Under the pieces are notes generated by a model that made no database searches, had not been told where the DNA came from, and worked only from the letters and a program-made list of their open reading frames with translations. Below, piece after piece: positions 1 to 18,934 of a DNA stretch of 64,000 nt. Source of the stretch: Candidatus Shapirobacteria bacterium (GTDB taxonomy: Bacteria; Patescibacteriota; Microgenomatia; UBA12405). A program made the position numbers and the translations under genes. The stretch is from the NCBI GenBank assembly GCA_041659325.1, contig JBAZYN010000004.1:583-64582 (forward strand), read 5' to 3'. How positions within the stretch are numbered: the first letter of the stretch is position 1; the number at the start of each line of letters is the position of its first letter.

Positions 1-1505
1 GTTTATCGAAGCTGACCATCCCCCCCGAAGCCTTCAACAGCATTCCTTTCACCCAGGCCGACAAACACAAAATGGTAGTTTTCAGCCGTGACGCCAATCT
101 TCTCAAAATCGCCACCTGCCGGCCACCGATTGACTCCGAAATTTTAAAAAATATCGCCAAAAAAACCGGTCTCAAACCCGAAGTTTATTATTCCACCGAG
201 GCCGACATAGAAAATGTCCTGATAAATAACCGCCAGGATCTCCAAAGTACATTTGAAAAATTAGTAAAAGAGGGGATAGTCACTGCCACCAATCTTGACG
301 GCTCCGACGATCCTCCGGTCGAGAAAATCGTCGATCTCCTGATTGAAACGGCATATCAGGAAAAAGCTTCTGATATTCACATCGAGCCACAGGAAAAAAA
401 CGCCATTATCCGTTTCCGTATCGACGGTTCACTAAATGATGTTTTGACCGTCCCCAAAATTCTCCACGACCGTCTGATTACCCGCATCAAGGTAATGTCT
501 AGTCTCCGCACCGATGAGCACCTGAGCGCCCAAGACGGCAAGATAAAGTTTCACTCAAAAGAAATTTATTTTGATTTGCGTGTCTCAATTATCCCCATAG
601 TAGACGGAGAAAAGGTAGTTATGCGCTTACTTACATCAAATATCGGCGCCTTCGGTTTGGCCGATTTGGGTATGAGTGAAAAAGACATGGAAAAAGTCAA
701 ACGTGCCTTTACCAAATCCTATGGCATGTTTCTGTCCACCGGCCCCACTGGCTCAGGGAAAACTTCATCCATTTATTCCATCTTAAAAATCCTCAATGCC
801 CGGGAAAAAAACATTACCACCATCGAAGATCCGGTCGAATACCGCATCAAGGGCGCCAACCAGATTCAAGTCAACAACCGCACCAATCTAACTTTTGCCA
901 ATGGTCTCCGCTCAATTCTTCGCCAGGATCCAAATATTATATTTGTCGGAGAAATACGTGACAATGAAACAGCCGGCATCGCCATCAACGCCTCTCTTAC
1001 CGGCCATTTGGTTTTGTCCACTCTCCACACCAACACCGCCGCCGCCGCCATCGCCCGTCTGATTGATATGGAAGTTGAGCCTTTTTTGGTTGCCTCAACC
1101 GTTTCTGTGATTGTTGGTCAGCGCCTGGTCCGGCGTATTTGCGACAAATGCCGTGTGTCCTTTACCATTACCCGTGCCGAACTTCTGAAATATTTATCAG
1201 AAGACATGATTACCAAGCACTACATTCCTGTCGGCAAAGCCAAAGAAATTCGGGTGTACAAGGGCAAAGGCTGCAAATTTTGCCACAACACCGGATATGT
1301 CGGCCGAATCGGTATCTTTGAAGTTCTAGAGGTCACCAAAAAAATCCGTGAGCTGATCGGCCACCACGCCGATACCGACGAAATTCTTGAGGCCGCCAAA
1401 AAAGAAGGCTTCAACAGCATGCAAGACGATGGTCTAGACAAAATTACCAAAGGTTTTACCACTATTGAAGAAGTTCTTCGGGTTACAAAAAACGAATTGG
1501 AATGA
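1..1505 (+). CDS. pilB: Type IV pilus/T2SS assembly ATPase PilB/GspE family. The 5' end is probably outside the window; the ORF track starts at Met 72 but the frame is open from nt 3.
   Basis: Walker A GPTGSGKT, Asp-box, His-box TGHLVLSTLHTN, and a C-terminal CxxC...CxxC tetracysteine motif typical of GspE. The in-frame upstream translation LSKLTIPPEAFNSIPFTQADKHK has no stop. Confidence 0.85.
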   Translation, partial: LSKLTIPPEAFNSIPFTQADKHKMVVFSRDANLLKIATCRPPIDSEILKNIAKKTGLKPEVYYSTEADIENVLINNRQDLQSTFEKLVKEGIVTATNLDGSDDPPVEKIVDLLIETAYQEKASDIHIEPQEKNAIIRFRIDGSLNDVLTVPKILHDRLITRIKVMSSLRTDEHLSAQDGKIKFHSKEIYFDLRVSIIPIVDGEKVVMRLLTSNIGAFGLADLGMSEKDMEKVKRAFTKSYGMFLSTGPTGSGKTSSIYSILKILNAREKNITTIEDPVEYRIKGANQIQVNNRTNLTFANGLRSILRQDPNIIFVGEIRDNETAGIAINASLTGHLVLSTLHTNTAAAAIARLIDMEVEPFLVASTVSVIVGQRLVRRICDKCRVSFTITRAELLKYLSEDMITKHYIPVGKAKEIRVYKGKGCKFCHNTGYVGRIGIFEVLEVTKKIRELIGHHADTDEILEAAKKEGFNSMQDDGLDKITKGFTTIEEVLRVTKNELE

Positions 1506-2557
1506 AAACCACCTCCGTTACCTTTTCTACCGACGAAAAGATCAATCTTTTGAGTAATTTTTCTACCATGCTTTCCTCTAGCATTCCCATTTTGGATGTA
1601 GTAAATACCCTGCTTGAAGACTCCAAAGGCAACCTCAAGTTTTTTTTGACCACCTTAAAAGTTGATTTAATCGCCGGCAATCGGATAAATACCACTTTTG
1701 CCAAATTTCCCCGCAGTTTTGATCGGGTGGTGGTAAACCTCATCCGGGGAGCCGAAGAAAGCGGTACTCTGGAAACCACCCTTAGGGATATCAAAAACAA
1801 TATCCAAAAAGAAGCTGAATTTTCCGACAAAATAAAATCAGCCATGATGTACCCCATGATTATTTTCACTGTCTTCACCGGAGTGATTCTCATGATTCTA
1901 ATCGTTGTTATCCCCAAAATTTCGGTAGTTTTTACCAGGCTTCGGGTTCCTCTCCCCCTGCCAACAAAAATCCTGATTTTTTTATCTGATTTACTGATCC
2001 ATCAATACCTCTATCTTATTTTTGGTCTGACGGTTTTTGCCATTATCGCTACCTTTCTCTACAAAGAAAAACGTTCTTTTTTTACCAAGCTGATTGTCTC
2101 TCTTCCCCTGATTTCCGGTCTGTCCAAAAAAATAGATTTAACCAGATTTGCCCGCAATCTTTTTCTCCTGTTGACTTCCGGTTTGCCCATTTCCACCGCC
2201 CTTGAGTTTTCCCAGGACGTCGTAGCCAATCAGCAGATAAAAAATCTAATCAGAAATTCCCGGGAAATGCTAACCTCAGGAAAACAATTTTCTACCGGTC
2301 TAAAAAACAATAAAAATGCCATCCCCAGTATGATGATCAAGCTAATCGAAGTCGGTGAAAAAAGCGGGACTCTGGAGAAATCCATGCAGGATATTTCTGA
2401 CTACATGGATTATCAGGTATCAAAAGACCTAAAAACCATCACCGCCCTCATTGAGCCGATTATGCTTATTTGTGTCAGTATCGCTGTCGGCGGGATGATG
2501 ATTTCAATTATTGGTCCAATCTACGGGCTGATTAGTCAAGTTGGCGGCAGACGTTAA
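1502..2557 (+). CDS. pilC: Type IV pilus inner-membrane platform protein PilC/GspF family
   Basis: 351 aa with two GspF-like repeats and three TM segments. An ATGA overlap with pilB indicates translational coupling. Confidence 0.85.
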   Translation: MKTTSVTFSTDEKINLLSNFSTMLSSSIPILDVVNTLLEDSKGNLKFFLTTLKVDLIAGNRINTTFAKFPRSFDRVVVNLIRGAEESGTLETTLRDIKNNIQKEAEFSDKIKSAMMYPMIIFTVFTGVILMILIVVIPKISVVFTRLRVPLPLPTKILIFLSDLLIHQYLYLIFGLTVFAIIATFLYKEKRSFFTKLIVSLPLISGLSKKIDLTRFARNLFLLLTSGLPISTALEFSQDVVANQQIKNLIRNSREMLTSGKQFSTGLKNNKNAIPSMMIKLIEVGEKSGTLEKSMQDISDYMDYQVSKDLKTITALIEPIMLICVSIAVGGMMISIIGPIYGLISQVGGRR

Positions 2558-2558: not shown

Positions 2559-2930
2559 TTACTTCAACACTTCCTTAATCTTTTTGAGAAATTCATCCGG
2601 ATTCATCTCGGCTTTGTTCAGACAAGCCACCGCCCCCTTTTGAATCGCATCCTTAATTACTGGGTCATAAGCCAAATTTGTCAAAAGAATTATAGGACCA
2701 TTTCCAACCTTCGGTTTTTCCTCTCTCAATTTATCCAATATTCCGATACCGTCCAGGTAGGGGAGCATCACATCGAGCAAAACCAAATCATACCCACCGG
2801 CAATTATTTTTTCAAATCCCTCTTTTCCGTCAACCGCAGTTTCTACCTCAAAACCGGCATTTTTCAATATCTCTTCATATAACTCTCTTATATATTGATC
2901 ATCATCAACTAAAAGAACTTTTTGTGCCAT
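2559..2930 (-). CDS. Single-domain response regulator, CheY-like receiver (PilH/PilG-like orphan receiver)
   Basis: LLVDDD...DLVLLDVMLP...K motif set of REC domains. There is no output domain (123 aa). Confidence 0.85.
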   Translation of the reverse strand: MAQKVLLVDDDQYIRELYEEILKNAGFEVETAVDGKEGFEKIIAGGYDLVLLDVMLPYLDGIGILDKLREEKPKVGNGPIILLTNLAYDPVIKDAIQKGAVACLNKAEMNPDEFLKKIKEVLK

Positions 2931-2993
2931 ATTTTATATAATTTATATTATATATTAACAAATACTTGACATACCTGATATTATATCAGCGTT

Positions 2994-4175
2994 ATGCCAA
3001 AACGTGTTGAGGGACAACCCGATTCAGGTGCAAAAGAACCCGCCGCAAGCTCTCGGGTCGATCTATCACCACTCATTGACCGAAAGGAGGATGGTTTTTT
3101 ATCCAGGGTATCGGACCAAATGAAGCTGCAAGGCAATGAAGATGGTGAAGACCGCCATCGCGATCCGATTATCCGAAAATTTTATCGCGGCGCATTAAAG
3201 GCAATCTTTGCCCCGGGACAAAAATTTTCGACCATGCTGTCCGAAATTCATGCCCATCGGTCTGAAATGGATGAGACACATATGGTCAACCTGTTTTTCA
3301 GAGCAATTCAGTACACTCGCAGACACAACAATGATTGTGCTTATATGACTTACGAAGAAGATGATTGGGCTAAATATTTTTCTGGAACTGGTTTAGCAGA
3401 TATAGATACGATCAAACAAACCATGAAAGAAAAAAATACCGCCACAAATATCCCCGCCCGATATATCGGACTCGCCGCCGCCCTCCGCCTTATAACCGCC
3501 GGCAATCCCAATATCCGACTCGGAGTAGGGGATGTTGGCTGTAGTCTTGGCCTTGGCCTACCCGCCTCTATTCATCCTGACTATTTATCGAAACTGCAAT
3601 TTGCAGACGGAACTGATGGCCAGCAAATTCAAGCCGCCCTTTCCCTACCGATAGCCGAACTTTACCGGGCGATTGGGATCGATATTGACCTTCCCGACGT
3701 CGAATGGGTTAAGGCCTGCAATTACCCGTCACAATATGACACCGATGGCGCTGCCATTGATAAAACTATTGCCGAATTATCCGAAGTGTCGCGTACCGTA
3801 GATATAAAGCAGGCCGACATTACCAGCCCGGAGTCGGTTGAAATTCTGACGGGAGGTGGCCCCGCTCTGCACGTAATTCATTCATCTCTGACCATGTACG
3901 AGCTAACCCTCGAGCAGCAGCAAGCCGCCCTCGATAATATCGCCAAGGCCTTGCGTGTTGGCGGAATTTACCTCGAGTTTACATTTGTCGATCCGAAAAA
4001 TTGGTTTAAAGGCTTTCACGCTTTAGCCAGATATAAAACTCCTTCAGGCCAGCTCTCAGAATCGCTCGAATGGCTTGTCTGGGGCGATTCACGTTGCCGT
4101 CAGGTCGATCGGGGTACAGACTTCGCCCAGGTAAACGAGTATCTTGCAAACATGGGGAGAAACCACAATTTGTGA
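2994..4175 (+). CDS. Hypothetical protein with a divergent class-I SAM-methyltransferase-like Rossmann region
   Basis: Motif-I-like VGDVGCSLGLG, and a post-II-like VIHSSLTMYEL...ALRVGGIYL (Methyltransf_11/12-like). It has a long N-terminal extension and unusually long motif spacing. Confidence 0.35.
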   Translation: MPKRVEGQPDSGAKEPAASSRVDLSPLIDRKEDGFLSRVSDQMKLQGNEDGEDRHRDPIIRKFYRGALKAIFAPGQKFSTMLSEIHAHRSEMDETHMVNLFFRAIQYTRRHNNDCAYMTYEEDDWAKYFSGTGLADIDTIKQTMKEKNTATNIPARYIGLAAALRLITAGNPNIRLGVGDVGCSLGLGLPASIHPDYLSKLQFADGTDGQQIQAALSLPIAELYRAIGIDIDLPDVEWVKACNYPSQYDTDGAAIDKTIAELSEVSRTVDIKQADITSPESVEILTGGGPALHVIHSSLTMYELTLEQQQAALDNIAKALRVGGIYLEFTFVDPKNWFKGFHALARYKTPSGQLSESLEWLVWGDSRCRQVDRGTDFAQVNEYLANMGRNHNL

Positions 4176-4187
4176 TAATCTAAACAT

Positions 4188-5177
4188 ATGTCAGCCCAAG
4201 AAAATCCACCCTTATCCCCCTATTTACAAAGGTTGGCTGCATTACAAAAATTGGGCTTACTTCCACATCAGGGTGGGGAGCTTCCCTCAAAGACATCCGA
4301 GTTTGCGCCAAAAATTGTTTTCATGGACACACCTCAAGGAGTCGCCGAAGTTGGTGATGCTCTTGCTATGGGGTGGCCGGTGATTACCGATTATGGTGCC
4401 ACTTACGGCACTACTTTCCCTCCCCACATCCGGGAGGCCGTTGCCCTCGCCCGTGGTGAAGTTGAGCCGTTGCCCACCGTTTCTATCGTAACTTTTCGCG
4501 ACGTTGCCTATGGCTGGATGGATACTTCCCGTATTCATCCGGATATCGTCAAATCGCTTAATGCGGGTAAATTTGACATTTTAAACGGAATTGCTTTTAT
4601 GAGATATTCCTGCAACGATGTCTGTCAAAAAACTCTGGGCCGGCATTACGTAAACGCAAAACAGGAAGTCCAGGTTTTTATTGTCGAAGATGTTGATCCG
4701 CTTATGTCATACCTTCGCCGGGAGCATCGCCTCGCCTATATCGCCGTCAGATCATCAAATGTCACCGGTCAACAGGAAGAAGCTTTTCCCGGAGGGGCGC
4801 TGAAATATGCTGCCTCTATCGGTTCCCCGATTCTGGCCGTCCGAACTGTTGCCTCACTGACCGTCCAGCAGGAAGATGAGCAAAATGTCCGGGAAAATTT
4901 ATACGATAAGTTAAAAAGAAAGCGATACGGATCCCAACCGATTGTTACTCTTTCATCCGTCGACGAGCCTCCGGCTATTACCCTCACCCGGGCTGGAAAC
5001 ACCGACCCAGCCACCCTCCAACGGCTCATGGCCGACATTATTGCCGATGGTATTGGTTTTGTTTATATACCCGAAAAAGTAACTAATTTCACCAGGCCCA
5101 TGTATGCCGCCGGAGACGACGTCCGCACTCCCCAAGATATCCGCCAAAGTTTGCTAAGACATTCAGGCCTAATTTAA
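4188..5177 (+). CDS. YrdC/Sua5-family (threonylcarbamoyl-AMP synthase-like) domain protein
   Basis: ITDYGATYG resembles the PTDTVYG loop and VRSSNVTGQQ resembles the SANxSG motif. The 329-aa size is compatible with Sua5. The match is weak. Confidence 0.4.
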   Translation: MSAQENPPLSPYLQRLAALQKLGLLPHQGGELPSKTSEFAPKIVFMDTPQGVAEVGDALAMGWPVITDYGATYGTTFPPHIREAVALARGEVEPLPTVSIVTFRDVAYGWMDTSRIHPDIVKSLNAGKFDILNGIAFMRYSCNDVCQKTLGRHYVNAKQEVQVFIVEDVDPLMSYLRREHRLAYIAVRSSNVTGQQEEAFPGGALKYAASIGSPILAVRTVASLTVQQEDEQNVRENLYDKLKRKRYGSQPIVTLSSVDEPPAITLTRAGNTDPATLQRLMADIIADGIGFVYIPEKVTNFTRPMYAAGDDVRTPQDIRQSLLRHSGLI

Positions 5178-5178
5178 T

Positions 5179-5595
5179 CTATTCCAATGCGCCCAATCCG
5201 GCCTGAGCACAGGTTACATCCTTGTTAACATCAGCCGAGCCTCCCACGCCGATAGCTCCAACCACTTGGTCATTTTCCGAAACAGGGATGCCCCCCGCAA
5301 TCACCATCAATTCTCCATCAAAAGCACTTGTAGTCCCATAGTACGGTTGGCCCGGAGTCGCGTATTTGGCGATATCAGCCGTTGCCAAACGTAAAACAGC
5401 CGAAGTATAAGCTTTAGCCATTGCATATTTGGGGCTGATAATCAGCGCTCCGTCCATTTTTTGGGAAGCTACCATTACCCCATAGTTATCTACTACCGTC
5501 ACGGTAACTTTTTCTTTTAGTTCATCGGCTTTTTTAACTGCCGCATTAATTGCTTTTAAAGCTTTCTCAAGTGTTATCATAAAGTGCAAAAACAA
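5179..5595 (-). CDS. GlcG/HbpS-family (DUF336) heme-binding protein
   Basis: 138 aa. The GGIPV...VVGAIGVGG motif is characteristic of DUF336. It is convergent with the preceding gene at 1-bp spacing. Confidence 0.7.
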   Translation of the reverse strand: MFLHFMITLEKALKAINAAVKKADELKEKVTVTVVDNYGVMVASQKMDGALIISPKYAMAKAYTSAVLRLATADIAKYATPGQPYYGTTSAFDGELMVIAGGIPVSENDQVVGAIGVGGSADVNKDVTCAQAGLGALE

Positions 5596-5608
5596 ATAAT
5601 ATTATTAT

Positions 5609-7027
5609 ATGCAAAACCATTCTAACACACCCAAAACCAGAAAAATAATTGAAGCCCTCTGGAAGTTGGAAAAAATAATTCTTGATACCCTCGATTTCAA
5701 CGAGGTCGTCCAAAAAATCTGTGATGGTTTACTGACCGAACTAGGTTATCTTAAACTTGGCTATCGGATTATTGTTTTGACCCTGGTTGACGAAAATAAA
5801 AAAGTCTTAAAAAGGATATCTCTTTCTCAGACCAAAGAAGCCGCTCGCGCTCAGGCCGCCTCTGCCGTCCCCTTTCATAAAATTGATATCCCGCTTGGGT
5901 CCAGGAACAACCTTTTAATAAAAACACTTAAAAGTAATCAGCCCGAAATTACTCACTATTGGCCCGACATTTTCCGCCCCACTCTCACCGATGACCAGGC
6001 TCTGGCAAACCAGAAGGCTTCCGGTATCAAAACTAGTATGCTTTATCCGGTCACCGTAAAGGACAAGGTCATTGGTGTCGTCATTTTTAGTCTAATCAAG
6101 CACGAAGACAATATTTCCCAAGACGAAAAAGATTTGATCAGAGGCTTTTGCGATATCGTTGGTTTGGCCGTCCAAAATGCCAGGTTATATACCACTCTTG
6201 GTGAAACCTCTGAAAAATTAAAACAAGCCAATGCCAAATTAAAAGAGCTCGATGTCTTAAAAGACGAATTTGTTTCTGTTGCTTCACACGAGCTTCGCAC
6301 CCCCATGACCGCCATCAAATCCTACCTTTGGATGGCCCTAAGCGGTCAAGGCGGCCCTCTCAATTCCAAGCAAAAATTTTATCTTCAAAGATCCCTCGAC
6401 TCAACCGAACGGCTTATCAAGCTCGTCAACAACATGCTAAACATTTCCCGGATAGAGTCCGGCCGGCTCTCCCTGGAGCTAAACAAAGTCGACCTTTCAA
6501 AATTAATAGAGGACGCCATCAACGAAATTGCCCCCCGGGCCAAAGAACTGGGTATCAATTTGGTCTACAATCCGGCTCCGTCCCTTCCAAAAGTTATCGC
6601 CGATGCCGACAAAATCAAAGAGGTGGTGATCAATCTTATCGGCAACTCATTTAAATTTACCCCGAAAAACGGCTCTATTACCGTAAACTTCCAAGTCACT
6701 GATGATCAGGTTATCACCTCTGTCACTGATACCGGATCCGGCCTTTCCCCCGATATGATCAAAAATCTTTTCCAAAAATTTGGACTGATCAAGGGATCTT
6801 ATCAGACCAACCAAACCCCAACCGACCAGGGGACCGGCCTGGGCCTATACATTTGTAAGCAAATCATAGAACTTCATCATGGCACTATTTCCGCCCTCTC
6901 CGAAGGTGTTGGCAAAGGATCAACTTTTAGTTTTTCCTTGCCAGTTTACACTCCCGCCAAGCTCAAACTTTATCAAAAAAAATTCCAGCATACTAGTAAT
7001 ATTGGTATCATTCACAGTAAGATTTAA
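5609..7027 (+). CDS. Cytoplasmic sensor histidine kinase with an N-terminal GAF-like domain
   Basis: H-box SHELRTPMTAIKSY, N-box, and G-boxes DTGSGLS and GTGLGLYICKQIIELHHG. There is no TM segment. Confidence 0.85.
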   Translation: MQNHSNTPKTRKIIEALWKLEKIILDTLDFNEVVQKICDGLLTELGYLKLGYRIIVLTLVDENKKVLKRISLSQTKEAARAQAASAVPFHKIDIPLGSRNNLLIKTLKSNQPEITHYWPDIFRPTLTDDQALANQKASGIKTSMLYPVTVKDKVIGVVIFSLIKHEDNISQDEKDLIRGFCDIVGLAVQNARLYTTLGETSEKLKQANAKLKELDVLKDEFVSVASHELRTPMTAIKSYLWMALSGQGGPLNSKQKFYLQRSLDSTERLIKLVNNMLNISRIESGRLSLELNKVDLSKLIEDAINEIAPRAKELGINLVYNPAPSLPKVIADADKIKEVVINLIGNSFKFTPKNGSITVNFQVTDDQVITSVTDTGSGLSPDMIKNLFQKFGLIKGSYQTNQTPTDQGTGLGLYICKQIIELHHGTISALSEGVGKGSTFSFSLPVYTPAKLKLYQKKFQHTSNIGIIHSKI

Positions 7028-7029: not shown

Positions 7030-7503
7030 ATGAGCCAAAAGTCTGGGTTTACTCTCCTCGAGGTCACTATAGTTCTCGGTATCCTGGCTCTCCTCTTTTC
7101 CATTACCTCACTTAATTTAAGCAACACTGCTCCCAAAAGTTCACTCGACAATGCCGTCCAACTTTTAATCGCCAACATAAAAGAGCAGCAGCTTTATGCC
7201 CTCACCGGCAAAACCGAAGACCAAACTGGTACTAACTTTGGTATTTATTTTGGCCCCCAAAAATATACTCTTTTTCAGGGAAACACCTACGACGCCAATG
7301 ACCTATCCAACTATGATGTCCATCTTGACGACATCGACACGTCTTCAACCGCTACCGGTTCGGTTATAATTTTTACCAGAAACACCGGTGAAATCCAAAA
7401 TTTTCAACCCACAGGCAACACTATCACTTTAACCCAAACCAACATTCAACAATCAAAGACAATCACACTAAATAAATATGGCATTATCGAATCAATTTTC
7501 TAA
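7030..7503 (+). CDS. Pseudopilin / minor type IV pilin (GspH/FimT-like)
   Basis: Prepilin leader MSQKSG followed by FTLLEVTIVLGILALL (class III signal with Glu+5). Confidence 0.8.
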   Translation: MSQKSGFTLLEVTIVLGILALLFSITSLNLSNTAPKSSLDNAVQLLIANIKEQQLYALTGKTEDQTGTNFGIYFGPQKYTLFQGNTYDANDLSNYDVHLDDIDTSSTATGSVIIFTRNTGEIQNFQPTGNTITLTQTNIQQSKTITLNKYGIIESIF

Positions 7504-9421
7504 ATCAGGGTCGGTCTTGGTAGAAATAATCATCGCCATCGCTCTCATGGCTTATATTGCTCCGGCCATTATTGATGGTCTTATCACTACCAGGCAGGGT
7601 GAACCTCAGCAGAATCAGCGTTTGACAGCTCTCGCCCTGATTAAAGAAACACAGGAATCGTTACGGGTAATCCGGGAAAAAGGTTGGTCCGCTTTTGCCG
7701 TTAATGGTACTTTTCACCCTCAAATATCTGCCGGCTCCTGGACACTTTTATCAGGCACCGAAACGGTAGGGGATTTTAGCCGCAGTATCACCATCTCTGA
7801 TGTCTACCGTGATACATTTGGAAACATTGGTTCTTCCGGTATCGTCGATTCTTCTACAAAAAAAGTTCTCACCACCATAAACTGGACCGAGCCGATTGCT
7901 TCTTCCGTCACCACACTTTCCTATCTTACGAGATATCTCGACAACCTTTCTTATGAGGAAACGACCGCCTCTGATTTTAACGCTGGTATTGGTGTCGGTG
8001 TAACTGTAACTTCAACAAACGGTGGAGAGATAATTCTTGGCTCCGGCGGACGGGTAGACTGGTGTAAACCTGACTTAACCATCAACGCCCTGGATCTCCC
8101 CGGTCAGGCCTACGCCTCCGATATTTCCGCCATCGAAGGTCGGGCTTTTGTAACTACCGGCGGCAACTCTTCGGGTGATTCAATGGACAGAATCGATGTT
8201 ACCAATTCTAACCCCCCGGTTGCCTCAAACACTGGTATCTACAACAATAGAAAATCATACGCTATTTTTGCTACTCCCGCCTACAACTATTTGACCTCAG
8301 ACCACCCCAGCCTGACTGTCGATATTGTTAATTCTGCCACCCTAACGCATGCCGGATATTTTCTGGCAAGCGGCGGAGGCAAAGGCAACGGTGTCTATGT
8401 AGACGGAAATATTGGCTATGTTACCGCTGGATCAAAGCTGTACACCTTTGATACTTCCACCATCACCGGCAATAATCAATCAGAGCTCGCCAGTATTTCT
8501 TTGGCGGGAATAGGTCAAAAGGTGGTAGTCAAAAACGGTTTTGCCTACGTTGCGATTTCCGGATCCTCCATCAAACTCCAGATTATCTCCAGTACAAACG
8601 GTGGTCGTAGTCTAAAAATTATCGGTCAAGCCGACTTTGATAGTCAGTCGGCTGTAGGTGTCGCGGTTAACTCCACCGGCAGTCGGACTTATGTCATTAC
8701 CGCTGCCTCTGGTACCCAAAAAGAACTATTTATTATCAACACCGCCGACAAACCGCTCGATCCCCCCACTCCCGTTAATTATTCTGTTGTCGGTAGCTAT
8801 GAGGCCAATGGTATGAACCCCAAGGGGATTATTGTTGTCTTTGGAAACAAGGTAATAATTGTCGGTTCCGGCGGTGAGCAATACCAAGTGGTCGATATTT
8901 CCAGTGAGGCCACCCCCTCCCGTTGTGGCGGCTTAACCAATCCTTATGGCGCCAGCACCATCAACGCTATTGCTACAGTGGTCGAACAGGATTCCGATAG
9001 TTACTCGTATATCCTGACCAACAACAGCAGTAAAGAGCTGCAGATCATCGAAGGCGGCCCCGGGGGTGTAGTTAGCATCAATGGCAACTTTACTTCCAAA
9101 ATATTTTCTCTGGACCGAGCCACTGCCTTTAACCGTTTTAATATTGACGCCGAGACACCCTCCAGTACCGAAATCCGCTATCAATTTGCCCTTGCTCCTC
9201 AGGTATCCGGCAGCTGTGTGGCCGCCAACTATGTCTTTGTCGGCCCCGACGGTACCCCCTCGACCTTCTTTACTTCCAATTCCGGAGCAATGCCGTTGTC
9301 AAACGACGGTCTGGATTACGAAAATCCCGGCAGTTGTTTCCGCTACAAAGTTTATTTAAGCTCGGCCGATAGGTCTCAAACCCCGGTTTTTAACAGCATT
9401 AGTGTTAATTACTCCCCCTAA
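7478..9421 (+). CDS. Large pseudopilin fused to an LVIVD/YVTN-like beta-propeller region (putative pilus tip adhesin)
   Basis: Prepilin-like leader MALSNQFSKSG followed by SVLVEIIIAIALMAY. Repeated G-x-AYV / V-V-x-G-N motifs are typical of LVIVD beta-propeller blades. Confidence 0.65.
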   Translation: MALSNQFSKSGSVLVEIIIAIALMAYIAPAIIDGLITTRQGEPQQNQRLTALALIKETQESLRVIREKGWSAFAVNGTFHPQISAGSWTLLSGTETVGDFSRSITISDVYRDTFGNIGSSGIVDSSTKKVLTTINWTEPIASSVTTLSYLTRYLDNLSYEETTASDFNAGIGVGVTVTSTNGGEIILGSGGRVDWCKPDLTINALDLPGQAYASDISAIEGRAFVTTGGNSSGDSMDRIDVTNSNPPVASNTGIYNNRKSYAIFATPAYNYLTSDHPSLTVDIVNSATLTHAGYFLASGGGKGNGVYVDGNIGYVTAGSKLYTFDTSTITGNNQSELASISLAGIGQKVVVKNGFAYVAISGSSIKLQIISSTNGGRSLKIIGQADFDSQSAVGVAVNSTGSRTYVITAASGTQKELFIINTADKPLDPPTPVNYSVVGSYEANGMNPKGIIVVFGNKVIIVGSGGEQYQVVDISSEATPSRCGGLTNPYGASTINAIATVVEQDSDSYSYILTNNSSKELQIIEGGPGGVVSINGNFTSKIFSLDRATAFNRFNIDAETPSSTEIRYQFALAPQVSGSCVAANYVFVGPDGTPSTFFTSNSGAMPLSNDGLDYENPGSCFRYKVYLSSADRSQTPVFNSISVNYSP

Positions 9422-9422
9422 A

Positions 9423-9917
9423 ATGAAAAAAATCTCACCTAGTGCCGGAACAACCCTAATCGAGCTAATCCTATACATGGGGCTTTTGTCTATATTTCTA
9501 TTAATGATTTTCAATTTATTTGCCACCATTCTTGCTTCTCAAACCCGTTCCGTCGCCGTATCGCTCGTTCAAACCAATGGTAATTTTATTTTAACCAAAT
9601 TAACTCACGACATAAATCAAGCCGATTCTATCATCACGCCTTTAACTGTCGGCACCTCGGATACTTCCATGGTTCTTCGTGTAGGCACTTCCGATTCCGA
9701 CTATAATGTCTCGGACGGCCGTCTTGTCCTTACCGATAGTACTGGTGCATCCAACCTCAACGATACCGATACTACGGTTTCTGATTTTGTTGTAAAAAGA
9801 TTGGGCAATTTCGGTGGAAGACAGGGTTTGCAAATATCGTTTACAATTACAAGTAATGTTATCGACAACACTAGCGTCAAAACTAAAAGTTTTCAAACAT
9901 TTGCTTCTCTAAGATGA
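9423..9917 (+). CDS. Pseudopilin / minor pilin (GspJ/PilW-like)
   Basis: MKKISPSAG followed by TTLIELILYMGLLSIFLL. The start is moved to the internal Met to avoid overlapping the upstream stop; the ORF track starts at 9402. Confidence 0.75.
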   Translation: MKKISPSAGTTLIELILYMGLLSIFLLMIFNLFATILASQTRSVAVSLVQTNGNFILTKLTHDINQADSIITPLTVGTSDTSMVLRVGTSDSDYNVSDGRLVLTDSTGASNLNDTDTTVSDFVVKRLGNFGGRQGLQISFTITSNVIDNTSVKTKSFQTFASLR

Positions 9918-10303
9918 ATCCAAAATACATTTTTTCCACCTTCCAAAACGGGCAAGCCCTCACCTCTCTTTTGATCATCATGTTTATCGGTCTGGCAATA
10001 GTTTCCGCCTCGGTGGGGATGATCAGCACTAATCTTGCATCGACCTCCGGGCTCCTTGTATCAAATGATGCCCTGGTGGTCGCTGAAAGCGGGGCCGAGG
10101 ATGCTCTTCTTAAAATCCTTCGCAATCCATCATACGCTGGGGGGACTTTGCCCCTTAGTATCGGCACTGCTACTGTCAGCATTTCTTCCACCTCTCCCTT
10201 CACCTTTGTCTCCACTGGTCAGGTGGGTCAATACCAACGCTCAATTCGGGTTATACTAAATAATACTGACGGTGTTACCACCGTCACTTCTTGGAAAGAA
10301 TAA
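9914..10303 (+). CDS. Pseudopilin-like protein (PilX-like, atypical leader lacking Glu+5)
   Basis: A short leader followed by the hydrophobic helix QALTSLLIIMFIGLAIV. Small size and operon context support the call. Confidence 0.55.
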   Translation: MNPKYIFSTFQNGQALTSLLIIMFIGLAIVSASVGMISTNLASTSGLLVSNDALVVAESGAEDALLKILRNPSYAGGTLPLSIGTATVSISSTSPFTFVSTGQVGQYQRSIRVILNNTDGVTTVTSWKE

Positions 10304-10307
10304 AACC

Positions 10308-11390
10308 ATGACCAAAAAATCTAGCCTTATTTTTTACCTTGATCGGCAAAAATTAATTATTGCCGGTACTCAGTTGGCCGTCCCCCTAACCCTGGATTTC
10401 CCTGCAAGCATCGTTTTGGATATCGACATTATCGACATCGAATCATTTGACTTACTTCTGGGAAATTTTCTGGAACAATCCCAAATTGCCGTCTCCGATG
10501 TCCTGCTGGTTGTTTCCCCAGAAGTTTATTACGAAAAAGACACCTCCCTTTCCCTCGACCCTACCGAGCGTCAAAATCAAATTGATCTTTTTTCGGAAAC
10601 GATACCATTCAAGCATCTTATTTTCAAAGATTATTCATTAGGTACGCCCCGTCTCATCGCCTTAAACAAAAATTTTTACGAACCGGCAATCAAATTAATC
10701 GAAAAAAAGGGCTTCAACATCTTTACCATTATTCCTTTTTTTGTCCTTGGTCATTTTAATTTAAAATTGGAAAATTACCAGCCCGCCGAAGTAAAAGAAA
10801 TTTTCAAAAAAATAAAGTTGCTTGATCCTCTAAGTATTATTTCTAGTCAGGATATCGACAAAATGGTTACCACCCAAATCCACAAGCCCAAGGAAGACTC
10901 TAAGCGGACATATATATTACTTGCTGTTTTTTGTTTCCTCTTTGTCTCCCTTCTGGCTTTTGTTCTTCTTGGTCCCCGGCTACTTAGGCCCGGTGCCAAA
11001 AAAACATACCCACCACCATCTATAATATCCACCCCCATCCCGACAAAGGTTTTAATCTCCCCCATCCCCACCGTTACTTTTCTTTCCGAAGAAACCTTAC
11101 GAATCAAAGTCGTCAATAGTTCCGGGGTGGCAAATCAGGCGGCTGCGGTAAAGCAAGCATTGACAGCCGCCGGTCTAAAGGAAATTACTATCGGCTCTTC
11201 GTCCAAAGTCACCGCCGCCAACAACCAAATTAGTTTTTCCCCAAATGTTTCTCCCGAATCCCGTCAAAAAATAACCGCCGCCGCTGAAAAAATTGCCGGG
11301 GTATTTACCGAGACCGAATCCACCGATCTTACCAATATTGATGTGCTTATCACCACTACTTTCAAGCCCGGTACTAAAGCTACCCCTTGA
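10308..11390 (+). CDS. Bitopic membrane protein with a C-terminal LytR_C-like domain (pilus-locus associated)
   Basis: Cytoplasmic N-domain, TM helix ILLAVFCFLFVSLLAFVLLG, a Pro-rich linker, then LRIKVVNSSGVANQAAAVKQALTAAGL...ITIGSS typical of LytR_C. The ORF track begins at a GTG at 10272. Confidence 0.5.
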   Translation: MTKKSSLIFYLDRQKLIIAGTQLAVPLTLDFPASIVLDIDIIDIESFDLLLGNFLEQSQIAVSDVLLVVSPEVYYEKDTSLSLDPTERQNQIDLFSETIPFKHLIFKDYSLGTPRLIALNKNFYEPAIKLIEKKGFNIFTIIPFFVLGHFNLKLENYQPAEVKEIFKKIKLLDPLSIISSQDIDKMVTTQIHKPKEDSKRTYILLAVFCFLFVSLLAFVLLGPRLLRPGAKKTYPPPSIISTPIPTKVLISPIPTVTFLSEETLRIKVVNSSGVANQAAAVKQALTAAGLKEITIGSSSKVTAANNQISFSPNVSPESRQKITAAAEKIAGVFTETESTDLTNIDVLITTTFKPGTKATP

Positions 11391-11423: not shown

Positions 11424-11906
11424 ATGAAACAAAAAATCTGCCAAAAAACCAACAAAAGAGGTTTCACCTTGATCGAGTTATTGGTCGTCATAGGTATCCT
11501 CGCTCTCTTGCTTGCCATTACTCTTATCGCTATCAACCCGGCCAAACAGTTCGCCCAAGCCAACGACACCAAGCGTAGTAGTGATGTCAATGCCATTTTA
11601 AATGCTCTCAACCAGTATGCCGCCGACAATCGGGGCCAGCTTCCCGCCGGTATCGGTGCCTCAGCCGTTTCCATTGGTTCTTCAGGGGTCAACCTCTGTG
11701 CCGATTTAGTCACCGAATATCTGGCCGCCCTCCCCACCGATCCGACTAGTGGTAATACCGCAGGAGAAGTCGGAGCTCCCGTAACTGTCTGTACTGCCGC
11801 CTATGATACCGGTTATGTAGTTTCCAGAAGCGCCGACAATAACCGTCTTACTGTTACTGCCACTAGCGAGGTCAACCCGACCATCCCGATTTCAGTCACT
11901 CGCTAA
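11424..11906 (+). CDS. pilA: Major type IV pilin PilA
   Basis: Canonical leader MKQKICQKTNKRG followed by FTLIELLVVIGILALLLAI. The protein is 160 aa. An intrinsic terminator follows. Confidence 0.9.
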   Translation: MKQKICQKTNKRGFTLIELLVVIGILALLLAITLIAINPAKQFAQANDTKRSSDVNAILNALNQYAADNRGQLPAGIGASAVSIGSSGVNLCADLVTEYLAALPTDPTSGNTAGEVGAPVTVCTAAYDTGYVVSRSADNNRLTVTATSEVNPTIPISVTR

Positions 11907-12506: not shown

Positions 12507-15260
12507 CTAAAAAGCTTTAATCTGTGCCAGGGCCGTTATCGAAAACAACATCAGTACCGACAGGGTAAAGGTGACAATCACAAAAAGCAAATAAAATACT
12601 TCAAAAATATTTACTTTCTTTCCGTTTTTCCATTTGTTCAGCTGATGATATATCCACACCGAAGACTCAAGCAAAAGTGCCGCGTACAAAATCCAGTCTT
12701 TCTTTTCTGGTTCAATCATCTCCGTTATTTCTACATTGCTCCCGGCCACTTGCCCGTCGGTTACGTTATCCGTTTTCTCCTCCGCCATAGCCGCCAGCAC
12801 TTTCCCGTATCGGCTCTTAACCCCAAATTCTGTCTCCGACCAGTTTGACATTAGCTTCTGGCCATTTTGGTCCAGGCCGTAAATTATTGTCCGGCTTCGA
12901 TATTGTCCTTCACTTGTTTTTATGGGTATTGGTATTCCAAAGTGTACTTTCCCGTGTCTGTTTCCTTTAATTTCACCCAAATCAATTTCTGCCCATCGAT
13001 AAAGTTCTCCGTATTGATCATATATCTCATGCCGCAGATATGTGTTGTATGCCGACACCGCCGCTCTGTTTTCTACTTCAATTTCAAAAGTCACCACATC
13101 ACCCGGGTATACAAATTCATTTACATTATTACCGACTTTTATTACCAATTCTGCCCTTCGGCTGTCCTGGTTCTTTGATCCTTCTGTTGTTACCTCCGCC
13201 GTCTCTTCTTGTCCCTCACTACTGTCAATTTGCTCATCAATATCCACCACCACCTCACCGTTTTGAACTACCAGAATTTTGCTTACCGCTACCGCTTGAT
13301 TGTTGCCGTTGTTCGTTTCCACCTGTCGGTTTCTCACTATCGCCCGCGCCTCCGCATCTATCAGTACCTCCGCTGCCAAAACCGGTCTTATAATTTTTTG
13401 CCACCAGGCTAATTCCTCATCAACTCCGGTGGCTACCTCTATCACAAAAGTTCCCCCCTCATTTCTCCCCAATTCACCCAATTGCCACTTTATCCTCCTC
13501 CCGCTGACAACCGGGTTCATCCCGCTGCCGTCTTTCACATACGCTGTTCCCTCCGGTAATACCAATTCCAGTTCGGTTCCCCTGGCTGTATCATACCCCA
13601 GATTTTTATAGCTCACCTGATAGGCCAGGCTCTCCCCCTGGCGAACTTCATTTTTCAATGCTATTAGCCCAACATCCATGTCCGGATAGGCAAATATCAC
13701 TCTCCCTCTCCAGCCCCCAATTATATTAATCAGGCCATAAAACCAATTGTTGCCCGAAATATTTACATTTACCAGATTATTTAAATTGGCAATCGCCGTT
13801 GCCTCTCCGGTTTTGATTGCTCCTGTGCCGCTTTGTTCAATTACATTGTTGCCGGTATCTGCCGATACCTTTATGTTGTTGTAAACCTGGGCGTCATTAC
13901 TATTGTAAATACCTAGATTTTCCCCTCCGATAGGGGATATCGCCCAGTTGCTAAAATCAGCCTCCGCTGTCATCCAATCGGTCGCCCCCGGCGCCGACCA
14001 GTTAACCACCTCCGTTTTTTCTCCTCCCCAATTGTTAATCGAAGCATAAAAATACCCATCACCGCTTATATTCATATCGGCTATAGTTGCGCTTTTTGCC
14101 AAAGCCATCGCCCCGCCGGTTTCTACCGTCCCCTGTGTTTCTGCTGATACGCTATTTCCCCCGGTGTTGGCTTCTGCCGTCACTTCATTTTTGATATTAC
14201 TTTGATTCTGGCTGCTGACCACCGCTCCCCCGGTACTTCCCCCTGCTCCAAACCAAGTCGGTGCCGGTAGGATCAGGTCAGCCAACAGGCTGCCGTTGAG
14301 GTTCATAATTCCAAAAAACACCTGATTGCCAAAAATATTCGTGTTAACCAGATTTATCACATTAGCCAAAGCCGTCGCCGATCCCGACATTATCACCGCC
14401 TCATCGGTTTCACCGATTACATTCATCCCCGTCCTGGCCATTACCGTCACCCAGTTTTCCACCGATGCTTGGTTAAAATTACACAAGCTCATCAATTGGC
14501 TGTTTCCCTCATTTACCGTCATCGGTTGGGCTGATAACTCCTGCCACATTTTATTCAAGTCCAAGTCTTTCTTTTCTCCCGAAAATATATTGTTGATATA
14601 AACGCCGATTTTTCCGCCCACAATATTGCTGTTGACCAGGTTGATTACATTGGCCACTGCCGTTGCCCCGCCGCTTTTTATTTCCGCCGATATCTCCGTT
14701 TTGATGACTTCATTTCCTCCGGTATCGGCGCTCGCTGTCGCTTCGTTAACCAAATCGGCTTTATTTTTATTTATTACCTGTTTTGGTATCACCACTACCA
14801 CTTCACCGCTTAAAGCTTTTGACGGTTCAATCAACGTATTTTCGTTTATTGTATTTTTCGAATCAGTCTCTGCCGACGCACTACTGGTATCAATCAATCC
14901 CGTTACCGCTTCCTCAATTGTATTTCCCCCCGTCTGGCTGTCCGCCGAAGTTTGCGCCGAAACCGACGCTTCATGTTCATTTACCACGATTTCCACCAGT
15001 TCCGGACTGGTTGTCCCTATGGTTGGGGTTGGCGTTGTTCCGTCGATTTCCGGTCCTGCTTCTGTTACGCCCACCCTTTCTGCCGTTACTTCCGGCGTTT
15101 CTGTCGGGGTTATTTCATCCGCTGCTTCCTTATTTTCCGATACCTGAGTTGAGCCCACTTCTAATGCCTCTGCCCAAACCGTCACAGGCACCAAAAGCTG
15201 ATTCAGCCAAAGCGAAAAAATCGCCAAACAATTAAAAATTTTTATATATCTTTTTTCCAT
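12507..15260 (-). CDS. Large secreted, C-terminally TM-anchored repeat protein with DUF11 (conserved repeat, TIGR01451-like) domains
   Basis: Signal peptide. At least four copies of an about 45-aa 'SADTGGNxV...TGxAxAxANxxNLVNxNIxG' repeat. Two DUF11-like segments. C-terminal TM helix plus KNGKK. Confidence 0.6.
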   Translation of the reverse strand: MEKRYIKIFNCLAIFSLWLNQLLVPVTVWAEALEVGSTQVSENKEAADEITPTETPEVTAERVGVTEAGPEIDGTTPTPTIGTTSPELVEIVVNEHEASVSAQTSADSQTGGNTIEEAVTGLIDTSSASAETDSKNTINENTLIEPSKALSGEVVVVIPKQVINKNKADLVNEATASADTGGNEVIKTEISAEIKSGGATAVANVINLVNSNIVGGKIGVYINNIFSGEKKDLDLNKMWQELSAQPMTVNEGNSQLMSLCNFNQASVENWVTVMARTGMNVIGETDEAVIMSGSATALANVINLVNTNIFGNQVFFGIMNLNGSLLADLILPAPTWFGAGGSTGGAVVSSQNQSNIKNEVTAEANTGGNSVSAETQGTVETGGAMALAKSATIADMNISGDGYFYASINNWGGEKTEVVNWSAPGATDWMTAEADFSNWAISPIGGENLGIYNSNDAQVYNNIKVSADTGNNVIEQSGTGAIKTGEATAIANLNNLVNVNISGNNWFYGLINIIGGWRGRVIFAYPDMDVGLIALKNEVRQGESLAYQVSYKNLGYDTARGTELELVLPEGTAYVKDGSGMNPVVSGRRIKWQLGELGRNEGGTFVIEVATGVDEELAWWQKIIRPVLAAEVLIDAEARAIVRNRQVETNNGNNQAVAVSKILVVQNGEVVVDIDEQIDSSEGQEETAEVTTEGSKNQDSRRAELVIKVGNNVNEFVYPGDVVTFEIEVENRAAVSAYNTYLRHEIYDQYGELYRWAEIDLGEIKGNRHGKVHFGIPIPIKTSEGQYRSRTIIYGLDQNGQKLMSNWSETEFGVKSRYGKVLAAMAEEKTDNVTDGQVAGSNVEITEMIEPEKKDWILYAALLLESSVWIYHQLNKWKNGKKVNIFEVFYLLFVIVTFTLSVLMLFSITALAQIKAF

Positions 15261-15319: not shown

Positions 15320-15910
15320 CTAGTTCAAATCATTGACTTGAGCGTTGACTACCACTGAACCTTCTGCAAGAGCATCAGCTCTACCGGTATAAAGGTAACC
15401 GTTTCCGCCTCGTACGGTTAATCGGTTATCACCTGAATCGGCATCTGCCTCAACCTCGCTATCCACCATTACCAGATTTACATCTATTTCACTGGCAGGT
15501 TGGTATCCTCCTCCGCATCGGTTTAGAGTATTGCATGGGCTAGTGCAGCCTTCGTCACAGCAGCCGTTTTCTTGTCGGCCGACGGTAACACCACCTCTGG
15601 CAGTTGCCCAAGCTTCACCGGTATCAATTATTCCGGTTACAACCACGGGTTCCTCTTCGGGTTCCTCATGACACCACGGCCCAAAACACGGCATTCTATT
15701 TGTTTCCCTGACTGGAGCGGGAGCGCCAATATTGACATTGTTATCGCCTGAATCGGCTTCTGCCTCCACCTCGCTTTCAATCAGGGTGACATTCGCATTG
15801 ATATCCGGGGTAACCCGGGTCATCCTGGATGGTCGTGTAAGAGCCGAAACTGGTACCGCCACGGCCAAAAGAACGGCCACTGCGGTTAAAGTTGCAATTG
15901 TTTTTTTCAT
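15320..15910 (-). CDS. Small secreted Cys-rich protein sharing the 'EVEA(E/D)ADSGDN' repeat with the upstream 917-aa protein
   Basis: Signal peptide MKKTIATLTAVAVLLAVAVPVSA. Two copies of the repeat flank a central segment with 8 Cys. Confidence 0.55.
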   Translation of the reverse strand: MKKTIATLTAVAVLLAVAVPVSALTRPSRMTRVTPDINANVTLIESEVEAEADSGDNNVNIGAPAPVRETNRMPCFGPWCHEEPEEEPVVVTGIIDTGEAWATARGGVTVGRQENGCCDEGCTSPCNTLNRCGGGYQPASEIDVNLVMVDSEVEADADSGDNRLTVRGGNGYLYTGRADALAEGSVVVNAQVNDLN

Positions 15911-16174
15911 ATGTTTTTTAAATTTTCACCCCCTTTTAAAATTTTTAAATAATAATACGTAAAGGAATAAAACAAAAACACCCCAAACACGCGCCACAAA
16001 CTCCAAAAACATCTCTTTTGTAAATACTATATATACTCATGGAAAAAACAAAAGCCACCTTATATTCTGAATTATCACCAAACCAAAATATCAAGTCAAT
16101 ACTATCAAAACAGGTCACCGAATTTAATCCCAAACGAACCGCTTTATTTTAAAAAGCAAAACAAAACCAAATTT

Positions 16175-16205
16175 TTTTAACTCCGAAAATCCGATTTTCC
16201 GGGCA
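16175..16205 (+). promoter_or_regulatory. Conserved intergenic motif copy A (TTTAACTCCG-AAAATCCGATTTT), near-palindromic
   Basis: It shares TTTAACTCCG...AAAAT.CGATTTT with 18904-18934. Both copies sit about 110-125 nt upstream of a start codon. Confidence 0.5.
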
Positions 16206-16282
16206 TTCGATATCTGCAAACAAGGAACATCAGTCGGGGCAAATAAAAATACCCAAATAATACGAAAAATTTATTTCCATTT

Positions 16283-16293
16283 TGTGGTAAAAT
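16283..16293 (+). promoter_or_regulatory. Extended -10 promoter element (TGtGGTAAAAT) for the 16328 gene
   Basis: TG-n-TAAAAT lies about 35 nt upstream of the start codon in a 417-bp AT-rich intergenic region. Confidence 0.4.
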
Positions 16294-16327
16294 AGAGAAG
16301 GTATAGAGTTTTACGGTTACATTCTTT

Positions 16328-17002
16328 TTGGCGCAGACGAATACAATGGATAACTTATTTGTATATTTTCTTCAAGCTCCTGCTACCGGAAATGATCCTG
16401 TCGTTTGTAAAGGGGCGGAGCAAATACTTAATAGTCTAGGCGATAGTATTAATTTCCAAAAAATTTCTCACCAATCTGAGGAACAAAGAGACCTAATTGA
16501 ACTCCACCAACCTCTGCGAATTTTCACTCTTGGATGTAGCCCCCAATTCGAGGTCACTCCGATTACTTATCTCAATCAAAAATACAATCAGGATTTTCTG
16601 GTTATTTGGTTTGACATCCGGGGATATCCTTTTTTCACCGATCCCGCTTTTTCTCAGCTAGATTTAAATCAGATAATTTTGGCCGGTGTAAACGACCTGG
16701 GTCAGTCCATCACCACCACTTCCTGCCACGAATTAAAAAATGGTCAGTTAATTTATAAAATCCTGAAAAAAGCTAAAAAAAATATTTATATTCATCTCAA
16801 CCTCAACGTTCTCGACCCTCAGGAATTAGGATCAGCTTCCCGCCCCGACGAAAACGGTATTCCCTTCGAAGCTTTAATCAGCCAAATTTTTCAGGTAAAA
16901 AAAGACTTCAACATTGTCGGGATAAGTATCGTCGAAGCCCCAACGATGACTCAATATCAACTGGACAAAGTCAACAAATTAGTACTAAAAACCTTCGAAT
17001 AG
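16328..17002 (+). CDS. Hypothetical protein, possibly a degenerate arginase/deacetylase-fold protein
   Basis: HLNLNVLDP resembles the SxDxDxxDP motif of the arginase family, but the metal-ligand Asp/His residues are not conserved. This is weak. Confidence 0.25.
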   Translation: MAQTNTMDNLFVYFLQAPATGNDPVVCKGAEQILNSLGDSINFQKISHQSEEQRDLIELHQPLRIFTLGCSPQFEVTPITYLNQKYNQDFLVIWFDIRGYPFFTDPAFSQLDLNQIILAGVNDLGQSITTTSCHELKNGQLIYKILKKAKKNIYIHLNLNVLDPQELGSASRPDENGIPFEALISQIFQVKKDFNIVGISIVEAPTMTQYQLDKVNKLVLKTFE

Positions 17003-17008
17003 TAAAAA

Positions 17009-17035
17009 AGTAAGCTATTATTAAACAAGCTTACT
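17009..17035 (+). promoter_or_regulatory. Perfect 8-bp inverted repeat hairpin (AGTAAGCT-N11-AGCTTACT) between two co-directional genes
   Basis: It has no U-tract and abuts the ATG at 17037, so it is an operator or processing/attenuation hairpin rather than a classical terminator. Confidence 0.35.
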
Positions 17036-17036
17036 T

Positions 17037-18359: not shown

Positions 18360-18373
18360 AGGCAAATAATAAA

Positions 18374-18772: not shown

Positions 18773-18903
18773 CCAATTCGATTAATTAAAGTCAGCTTTT
18801 TTGTAGGTAAACGGCCAACTTCCTGTCGGATATTTTTTAATATTAAATACATAATTTAAATTATTCCTGAGATACCAAAGCATCAAACACCCAAAAGAAT
18901 TCT

Positions 18904-18934
18904 TTAACTCCGGGAAAATGCGATTTTAGGCACC
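18904..18934 (+). promoter_or_regulatory. Conserved intergenic motif copy B (TTTAACTCCGGG-AAAATGCGATTTT)
   Basis: Matches the 16175-16205 copy. It lies 108 nt upstream of the GT2 start. Confidence 0.5.

Follow-up and report, generated by a model that had tools for sequence, protein, structure and literature searches.

A predicted propeller-bearing minor pilin and its family

The window analysed here is a 64,000-nucleotide (nt) stretch of contig JBAZYN010000004.1 from the Candidatus Shapirobacteria bacterium assembly GCA_041659325.1 (positions 583 to 64,582 of the forward strand), and its left end carries a type IV pilus gene cassette encoding, in order, a PilB-type assembly ATPase, a PilC-type platform protein, the minor pilin mpH, a propeller pilin (PROP), two further minor pilins (mpJ and mpK), a membrane protein with a LytR_C domain and a candidate major pilin (Table 1). 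PROP, the product of an open reading frame (ORF) of 647 amino acids (aa), joins a conserved prepilin signal and a pilin module to a large C-terminal part that is predicted to contain a seven-bladed beta-propeller and a separate beta domain. An earlier note, made from the sequence alone, had described this ORF as a pseudopilin fused to a propeller; the ORF limits it gave are exact and the four peptide strings it quoted are all found in the translation.

An identical protein, annotated as hypothetical, is known from a Candidatus Shapirobacteria metagenome-assembled genome (MAG; P0001), a member of the Microgenomates group, which agrees with the origin in the candidate phyla radiation (CPR) that had been proposed. 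A word-indexed search identified 429 homologues among 8000 candidates scored (best E = 0 to 1e-160), and a family profile matched 1456 of 1.84 billion cluster representatives at E <= 1e-30; these numbers and E-values are far beyond chance and indicate that the ORF is a real conserved gene. Relatives occur in at least 198 species genomes when one genome per GTDB species is scanned. Records carrying a candidate-phylum name belong to Levy-, Ames-, Gottesman-, Roizman- and Woesebacteria (Microgenomates groups), and many others are labelled 'uncultured Gammaproteobacteria' or 'Pseudomonadales', labels that we take to be untrustworthy; none of the 83 genome records retrieved is from a cultured isolate. 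Two samples of the family were used throughout, an alignment of 55 full-length homologues and a set of 83 genomic loci. Sequence searches of the PDB with PROP and with the family profile gave no solved relative, the matches being at chance level or confined to the generic pilin N-terminus.

Table 1 Features of the pilus cassette and domains of PROP, in window coordinates.
Feature	PROP residues	Position	Strand	Evidence
PilB-type assembly ATPase		1..1505	+	T2SSE E = 5e-125; frame open from position 3, left part beyond the window edge
PilC-type platform protein		1502..2557	+	T2SSF E = 3.5e-48; directly before the minor pilin genes in most loci
mpH, GspH/ComGD-like minor pilin (G/FTLLE), first of four		7030..7503	+	N_methyl above cut-off, weak GspH/ComGD matches
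PROP, propeller pilin	1-647	7478..9421	+	
PROP leader peptide, MALSNQFSKSG	1-11	7478..7510	+	Ends in Gly-1, predicted prepilin peptidase site
PROP pilin module	12-156	7511..7945	+	Glu+5 conservation, AlphaFold2 DSSP, weak ComGE matches, N_methyl in homologues
PROP linker region, short strands	157-192	7946..8053	+	DSSP strands 157-161, 171-178, 184-187
PROP seven-bladed LVIVD-type beta-propeller	about 193-530	8054..9067	+	AlphaFold2, Foldseek, LVIVD in homologues
PROP C-terminal beta domain and stop codon	531-647	9068..9421	+	AlphaFold2 strands, invariant Cys
mpJ, third minor pilin (G/TTLIE)		9402..9917	+	Glu+5 81/82, conserved position
mpK, fourth minor pilin (G/QALTS)		9914..10303	+	Weak PilX_N match, motif AESGxENALLRLLRNPxY
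Membrane protein, C-terminal LytR_C domain		10272..11390	+	Pfam PF13399 E = 2.3e-6; cassette position kept in most loci
Major pilin candidate (G/FTLIE)		11424..11906	+	N_methyl and GspG-like matches

N-terminal signal and predicted pilin fold

The leader MALSNQFSKSG is followed by SVLVEIIIAIALMAYIAPAII, and the stretch spanning the junction, KSGSVLVEIIIAIALMAY, corresponds to residues 9-26 (nt 7502-7555). A cut after Gly11 would leave S12-V-L-V-E16 at the new N-terminus, with Glu16 at position +5. Both residues are strongly conserved, Gly11 being present in 53 and Glu16 in 54 of the 55 aligned homologues, in which Pro29 is invariant; across the 83 loci, Gly-1 is kept in 80 and Glu+5 in all 83, and apart from this Gly the leader residues are unconserved. 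The class III signal that had been read at this position is therefore borne out by the conservation of the predicted cleavage site and of Glu+5, together with the hydrophobic helix predicted by AlphaFold2.

In the AlphaFold2 model (DSSP assignment), the pilin module comprises a hydrophobic alpha1-N segment, a helix extending from about residue 4-7 to residue 68 and an antiparallel beta-sheet at 77-151. The module modelled alone reached a predicted local distance difference test (pLDDT) value of 92.5, and the same elements recur in the full-length model. The predicted layout supports a pilin 'lollipop' fold, a class backed by topology rather than by a significant structural match. At the sequence level, the N-methylation motif family PF07963 (N_methyl) matches 19 of the 55 homologues at E <= 0.01, and the ComGE matches of the window PROP are below threshold (Pfam E = 0.25; NCBIfam 18.2 bits against a cut-off of 49).

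Predicted structure of the C-terminal part

A full-length model of PROP, built from the 55-sequence alignment, had a mean pLDDT of 89.6 and a predicted template modelling (TM) score of 0.75. It contains 27 propeller strands between residues 216 and 526, forming seven four-stranded blades of 41-55 residues with pLDDT mostly >90, and a strand from the 184-187 region presumably closes the last blade. When the model was compared with the PDB using Foldseek, the top 50 matches were all beta-propeller-containing proteins (E down to 4e-11), including DDB1, G-beta, RACK1, Fbw7 and phage nozzle or tail proteins; seven-bladed G-beta chains, which are WD40 proteins, aligned over about 355 columns with a root-mean-square deviation of 3.5-3.7 and target TM values of 0.72-0.76. 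The propeller proposed from the sequence alone is thus supported at the level of structure prediction. Matches in a viral fold library (podophage nozzle, gp10 and tail proteins) had low TM values and apparently reflect generic propeller similarity, with no relationship shown.

The three blade-like strings quoted from this region, VYVDGNIGYVTAG (residues 306-318), GQKVVVKNGFAYVAISG (346-362) and GIIVVFGNKVIIVGSGG (450-466), lie in propeller blades 3, 4 and 6, respectively. The family can be related to the LVIVD repeat (Pfam PF08309 / IPR013211), which matches 50 of the 55 aligned homologues (best E = 2.4e-16). In its original definition (PMC2447325), LVIVD is 42 residues long and repeats in cell-surface proteins of archaea and bacteria; the blades of PROP measure 41-55 residues. 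Internal repeats in the window PROP itself are faint, profiles of its blades matching its other blades weakly.

The propeller is flanked by two elements that the earlier note had overlooked, the linker strands (157-192) and the C-terminal beta domain (531-647). The linker may pack against the C-terminal domain, and it lies outside the propeller unit because the unit that is duplicated in two-propeller homologues begins at about profile position 193. The C-terminal domain has long strands at 543-559, 564-573, 618-629 and 637-646, has invariant C580, C620 and Y623 in the 55-sequence alignment and matches no Pfam or NCBIfam family. Variation in propeller number is evident among the homologues: proteins of about 1020 aa (P0004, P0005, P0008 and P0025) carry the propeller unit (profile about 193-525) in tandem, and two or more propellers occur before the shared C-terminal domain in some homologues, as in a 1998-aa homologue (P0250) and also at locus L002 (8001-11048).

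PROP has four conserved cysteines, Cys196 (in a WCxP motif), Cys483 (xCGG), Cys580 and Cys620, and the two-propeller homologues have six, with one WCxP and xCGG pair per propeller. Because the number of these pairs follows the number of propellers, each propeller may hold one disulfide and the C-terminal domain another, and such scaling fits an extracellular, disulfide-stabilised module.

The minor pilin cassette

The eight genes from PilB to the major pilin occur in the same order in three homologue loci that were inspected, and this exact order is found in 46 of the 83 loci, most of the others showing the same order interrupted by contig ends. Across loci, the median gap between the PilC and mpH genes is 3 nt, and mpH holds a fixed position directly upstream of PROP. 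Glu+5 is retained in mpH (81/81), PROP, mpJ and the major pilin, in contrast to mpK, in which none of 81 homologues has it. In type II secretion, the pseudopilin nearest the tip, GspK, is recognised by its lack of Glu5. By analogy, mpK is a likely GspK/PilX-like candidate tip cap, and the Glu+5 pattern together with the gene order leads us to read the four minor pilins as an H-I-J-K-type set, with PROP in second place and mpK as the likely cap. The major pilins of the different loci share a motif of the GFTLIE type without exception, and their median identity is 58%.

The association between PROP and the cassette was also evaluated independently of PROP, using a degenerate DNA pattern for the mpK motif AESGxENALLRLLRNP, which retrieved at least 120 metagenome stretches. 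Among the matches listed, a PROP homologue lies upstream in all 42 mpK loci with at least 3 kb of upstream sequence, and 37 of the 40 complete PROP copies are of single-propeller size. The reading of PROP as a minor pilin, also put forward in the earlier note, is supported by this strongly conserved minor-pilin operon context.

Several of the listed gene starts need to be reconsidered. For PilB, the start listed at position 72, which would give 477 aa, is not the real one, the homologues having a median length of 561 aa and carrying an MshEN domain; a truncated PilB was rejected, as the ORF crosses the window edge. The mpJ gene probably starts at ATG 9423 (MKKISPSAG/TTLIE) rather than at the listed GTG 9402, because this gives a normal 9-residue leader and no overlap with the preceding gene. 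Similarly, the LytR_C protein may start at ATG 10308, the listed GTG 10272 being probably too far upstream, because the overlap with the preceding gene then vanishes.

In the window, an insert of about 4.4 kb (2559-7027) lies between the pilC and mpH genes. It encodes a response regulator (2559-2930, minus strand), a DUF2332 protein, a 329-aa protein without an assigned family, a 138-aa ORF (5179-5595, minus strand) that is GlcG-like by eye only and a histidine kinase whose reading frame (5609-7027) stops 3 nt short of mpH. A regulator and a kinase are found at the same place in four other loci (L004, L022, L053 and L060) and a kinase in a fifth (L079); this two-component pair may be a dedicated pilus regulator.

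Proposed function and alternative explanations

We consider it reasonably probable that PROP is a modular type IV minor pilin whose tip-displayed module binds a conserved non-DNA protein or glycan ligand. The anatomy alone (signal, predicted fold, family and operon context) is much firmer than the steps that would lead from it to binding, namely cleavage, incorporation into the pilus, location at the tip, disulfide formation and ligand recognition. In the proposed sequence of events, PROP would be made as a prepilin and cut after Gly11 by a prepilin peptidase presumably encoded outside the window, so that the mature protein would begin at Ser12 with Glu at +5 on the hydrophobic alpha1 helix. 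The pilin module (12-156) would then join mpH, mpJ and mpK on the PilC platform, and the resulting mpH-PROP-mpJ-mpK complex would start pilus assembly and finish at the tip, where the C-terminal part of about 490 residues would be displayed. Display at the tip is expected because some 490 residues would be too bulky for the filament body, an argument from size that has been made for the bulky modules of modular pilins (PMC8179133). The propeller is probably locked by a Cys196-Cys483 disulfide, and the beta domain carries Cys580 and Cys620. The displayed module would most likely bind its conserved ligand, a protein or glycan other than DNA, on a partner cell or surface. PROP would then be a functional counterpart of PilY1 in diderm type IVa pili and of PilX2, the propeller pilin of Saccharibacteria.

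A number of results weigh against this interpretation. The residue at +1 is Gln in 71 of the 83 loci and Ser in the window PROP, while the usual residue in pilins is Phe, and the window PROP has no match to the N-methylation motif models PF07963 and TIGR02532 at E <= 1. A Foldseek comparison of the pilin module with the PDB found nothing at E <= 0.001 (best E = 0.14), with two weak matches to Thermus pilins only; the minor-pilin class is therefore not assignable by fold comparison, and placement of PROP in the GspI/PilV/ComGE slot rests on gene order and the sub-threshold ComGE match. Neither a prepilin peptidase (peptidase A24) nor PilT was found among the scanned window ORFs of at least 180 aa. 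The window PROP also has no match to Pfam LVIVD even at E <= 1 and its periodicity is faint, so that its description as 'LVIVD-like', proposed in the earlier note, rests on the homologues that do match. Finally, as set out below, the pattern of conservation would also suit a role in structure or assembly.

Conservation is even along PROP, its pilin head, linker, propeller and C-terminal domain all having a mean majority-residue frequency of 0.60-0.65, and its median identity across loci (43%) is above that of mpH, mpJ and mpK (34-38%) and below that of PilB, PilC and the major pilin (53-61%). Since the propeller is no more variable than the pilin module and PROP is better conserved than the other minor pilins, PROP is unlike a fast-evolving host-specificity determinant; a hypervariable specificity determinant was rejected, and the suggestion that PROP determines host specificity is weakened. 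The conservation instead points to a conserved ligand or to a structural role, and the latter would be the case if PROP were a priming or stabilising subunit that, like the C-terminal domain of PilY1, works in the assembly-initiation complex, where it would help the filament to form, keep it stable or oppose its retraction, and that binds nothing external. This alternative, which we regard as rather unlikely, would account for the obligatory presence of PROP in the cassette (42/42 of the mpK-found loci among the matches listed), for an identity exceeding that of the other minor pilins and for the similar conservation of all domains, none of which is a variable surface module, and there is a precedent in Myxococcus, where PilY1 and minor pilins prime assembly (as cited within PMC11623550). 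However, deletion of PilX2 in the saccharibacterium TM7x, the only studied analogue, spares the pili and lowers host binding, and a copy number of one, two or more propellers would suit a module that faces outward better than a tightly fitted machine part. Priming and adhesion are compatible and not mutually exclusive roles for PROP. With regard to the nature of the ligand, acidity is a family-wide trait of the propeller (median net charge -14, pI 4.1-5.2) and also marks the C-terminal domain (median pI 4.4), which argues against direct DNA binding by the module and weakens the earlier suggestion of DNA uptake.

A large minor pilin that captures DNA is known in Thermus (ComZ), and PROP could be a comparable DNA receptor of a Com-like DNA-uptake pilus; we consider this unlikely. 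The weak ComGE and ComGD similarity of the pilin N-termini and the weak fold matches of the pilin module to a Thermus competence pilin are compatible with such a function, but the Com similarities fall far under the curated cut-offs (18 bits against 49) and the charge of the module is unfavourable. The lack of PilT in the cassette and among the scanned window ORFs could be read in the same direction, although it concerns the cassette only and not the rest of the genome, and CPR pili have been suggested to take up DNA (PMC7143001); the same source reports a closed Microgenomates genome that encodes PilD, PilT and PilM and no secretin. It is also conceivable, and in our judgement very unlikely, that PROP acts outside the pilus, as a surface propeller protein kept in the membrane by its N-terminal helix or an enzyme acting on host envelope polymers whose gene merely lies in the pilus operon. 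LVIVD repeats have been described in cell-surface proteins generally (PMC2447325), several other large surface proteins are encoded in the window and the failure of the window PROP to match the N_methyl hidden Markov model would be in keeping with this. A near-invariant Gly-1 and an invariant Glu+5 would nevertheless be needless in a simple signal anchor, the PROP gene is fixed between two canonical pseudopilin genes that it overlaps or abuts, and no catalytic family was matched by the window PROP (Pfam and NCBIfam) or the 55 homologues (Pfam).

Implications for Microgenomates

The type IV pilus is the main candidate organ of Microgenomates for contact with other cells. PROP is the sole large part of the conserved cassette that is predicted to face outward and was found wherever the cassette was found, which makes it an obvious bait for identifying the ligand or host of these organisms. 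It also provides a well-defined and widespread example for the modular pilin concept, and LVIVD would represent, beside RCC1, a second and independent type of propeller on Patescibacteria pili. The understanding of how type IV pili work is unchanged by these findings. A broader proposal, tentative and in our view doubtful, is that the second-slot minor pilin of Microgenomates, and perhaps of monoderm CPR bacteria at large, has incorporated the role that PilY1 has in diderm type IVa pili. Its disulfide-locked LVIVD propeller would be an obligatory and conserved component of the tip and priming complex and would recognise one conserved ligand common to every host or substrate of this class. If true, PROP would serve the whole lineage as its one attachment factor and would offer a way to find the partners of Microgenomates.

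Surrounding genes and strand composition

Beyond the cassette, the window encodes several putative surface proteins. A 917-aa protein with a DUF11 domain and a hydrophobic C-terminus lies directly after the cassette (12507-15260, minus strand), and two others comprise 925 aa (34255-37032, CarboxypepD_reg) and 939 aa (58979-61798, CARDB and CarboxypepD_reg repeats). Another ORF (42512-51934) encodes 3140 aa, in which DUF2341, right-handed beta-helix/NosD and glycine-rich domains were recognised. Five ORFs of 339-437 aa that match no Pfam family lie before it (37004-42626), and a second LytR_C protein (51970-52656) comes after it. Most of the large ORFs are on the plus strand, where GC skew is negative in 30 of the 32 2-kb windows of 1-64000 (cumulative -4.35). 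A disparity in strand composition has been reported for another Microgenomates genome, according to the title of PMC7143001.

Comparison with known pilus systems

The combination of a pilin motif with LVIVD repeats has been catalogued before. In their InterPro survey of modular pilins, defined by the N-terminal motif IPR012902 and extra domains, Raynaud et al. 2021 (PMC8179133) listed seven IPR012902-IPR013211 architectures comprising about 30 proteins (Dataset S1), and they mentioned an 860-residue Falkowbacteria protein with 12 copies of IPR013211. Its function was unknown to these authors, and the entry corresponds to the LVIVD repeat (PMC10210494). That catalogue did not describe the Microgenomates family, its operon position or its fold, and no paper in the library searched combines Microgenomates, pilin and propeller. 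New here are the predicted domain anatomy of PROP, the extent of the family across Microgenomates, the propeller duplication variants and the cysteine pattern, as well as the finding that PROP is an obligatory member of a cassette that resembles H-I-J-K and has a likely cap lacking Glu5. The modular pilins of Streptococcus sanguinis, PilB and PilC, resemble PROP in having a small pilin module with a class III signal and a bulky grafted module, which is a vWA domain in PilB and a lectin in PilC, and a seven-bladed propeller plus beta domain in PROP.

The closest functional comparison within Patescibacteria is with the Saccharibacteria protein PilX2 from Nanosynbacter lyticus TM7x, a minor pilin whose C-terminal part is a seven-bladed RCC1 propeller and which has been proposed as a tip adhesin; its deletion reduced binding from 10.6% of host cells to 4.6%, with pili still formed (PMC11623550). 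Compared by description, both PilX2 and PROP are propeller-bearing minor pilins encoded with pilus genes, but PilX2 has RCC1 blades and reportedly lacks a predicted PilD signal, whereas PROP has LVIVD-type blades and a conserved Gly-1/Glu+5 signal and belongs to Microgenomates. RCC1 was matched by none of the 55 PROP family members in Pfam. As a separate observation, the two-propeller locus L002 encodes a 1262-aa protein (15876-19048) with RCC1 repeats, the repeat type of the PilX2 propeller, together with peptidase M23 and Big_13 domains, and this gene adjoins three extra pilin genes.

In diderm type IVa pili (Pseudomonas, Neisseria and Myxococcus), the seven-bladed propeller protein PilY1/PilC is found at the tip with four core minor pilins and functions in adhesion and priming, as summarised in PMC8179133 and PMC11623550. 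PilY1 docks on the minor pilins as a non-pilin, whereas in PROP the propeller is fused to a minor pilin, and the PilY1 family (PF05567 / IPR008707) is matched neither by the window PROP at E <= 1 nor by the 55 homologues at E <= 0.01. The earlier description of PROP as 'PilY1-analogous' can thus be retained as an analogy in fold and presumed place, but not as a family assignment, PROP itself being a pilin. The cassette has the four consecutive minor pilin genes that are typical of GspH-I-J-K in type II secretion systems, FimU-PilV-PilW-PilX in type IVa pili and ComGD-E-F-G in competence systems. As in GspH-I-J-K, the first gene product is GspH/ComGD-like and the last, like GspK, lacks Glu+5, with PROP in the GspI/PilV/ComGE slot; the known second-slot subunits are small, whereas PROP bears about 490 additional residues.

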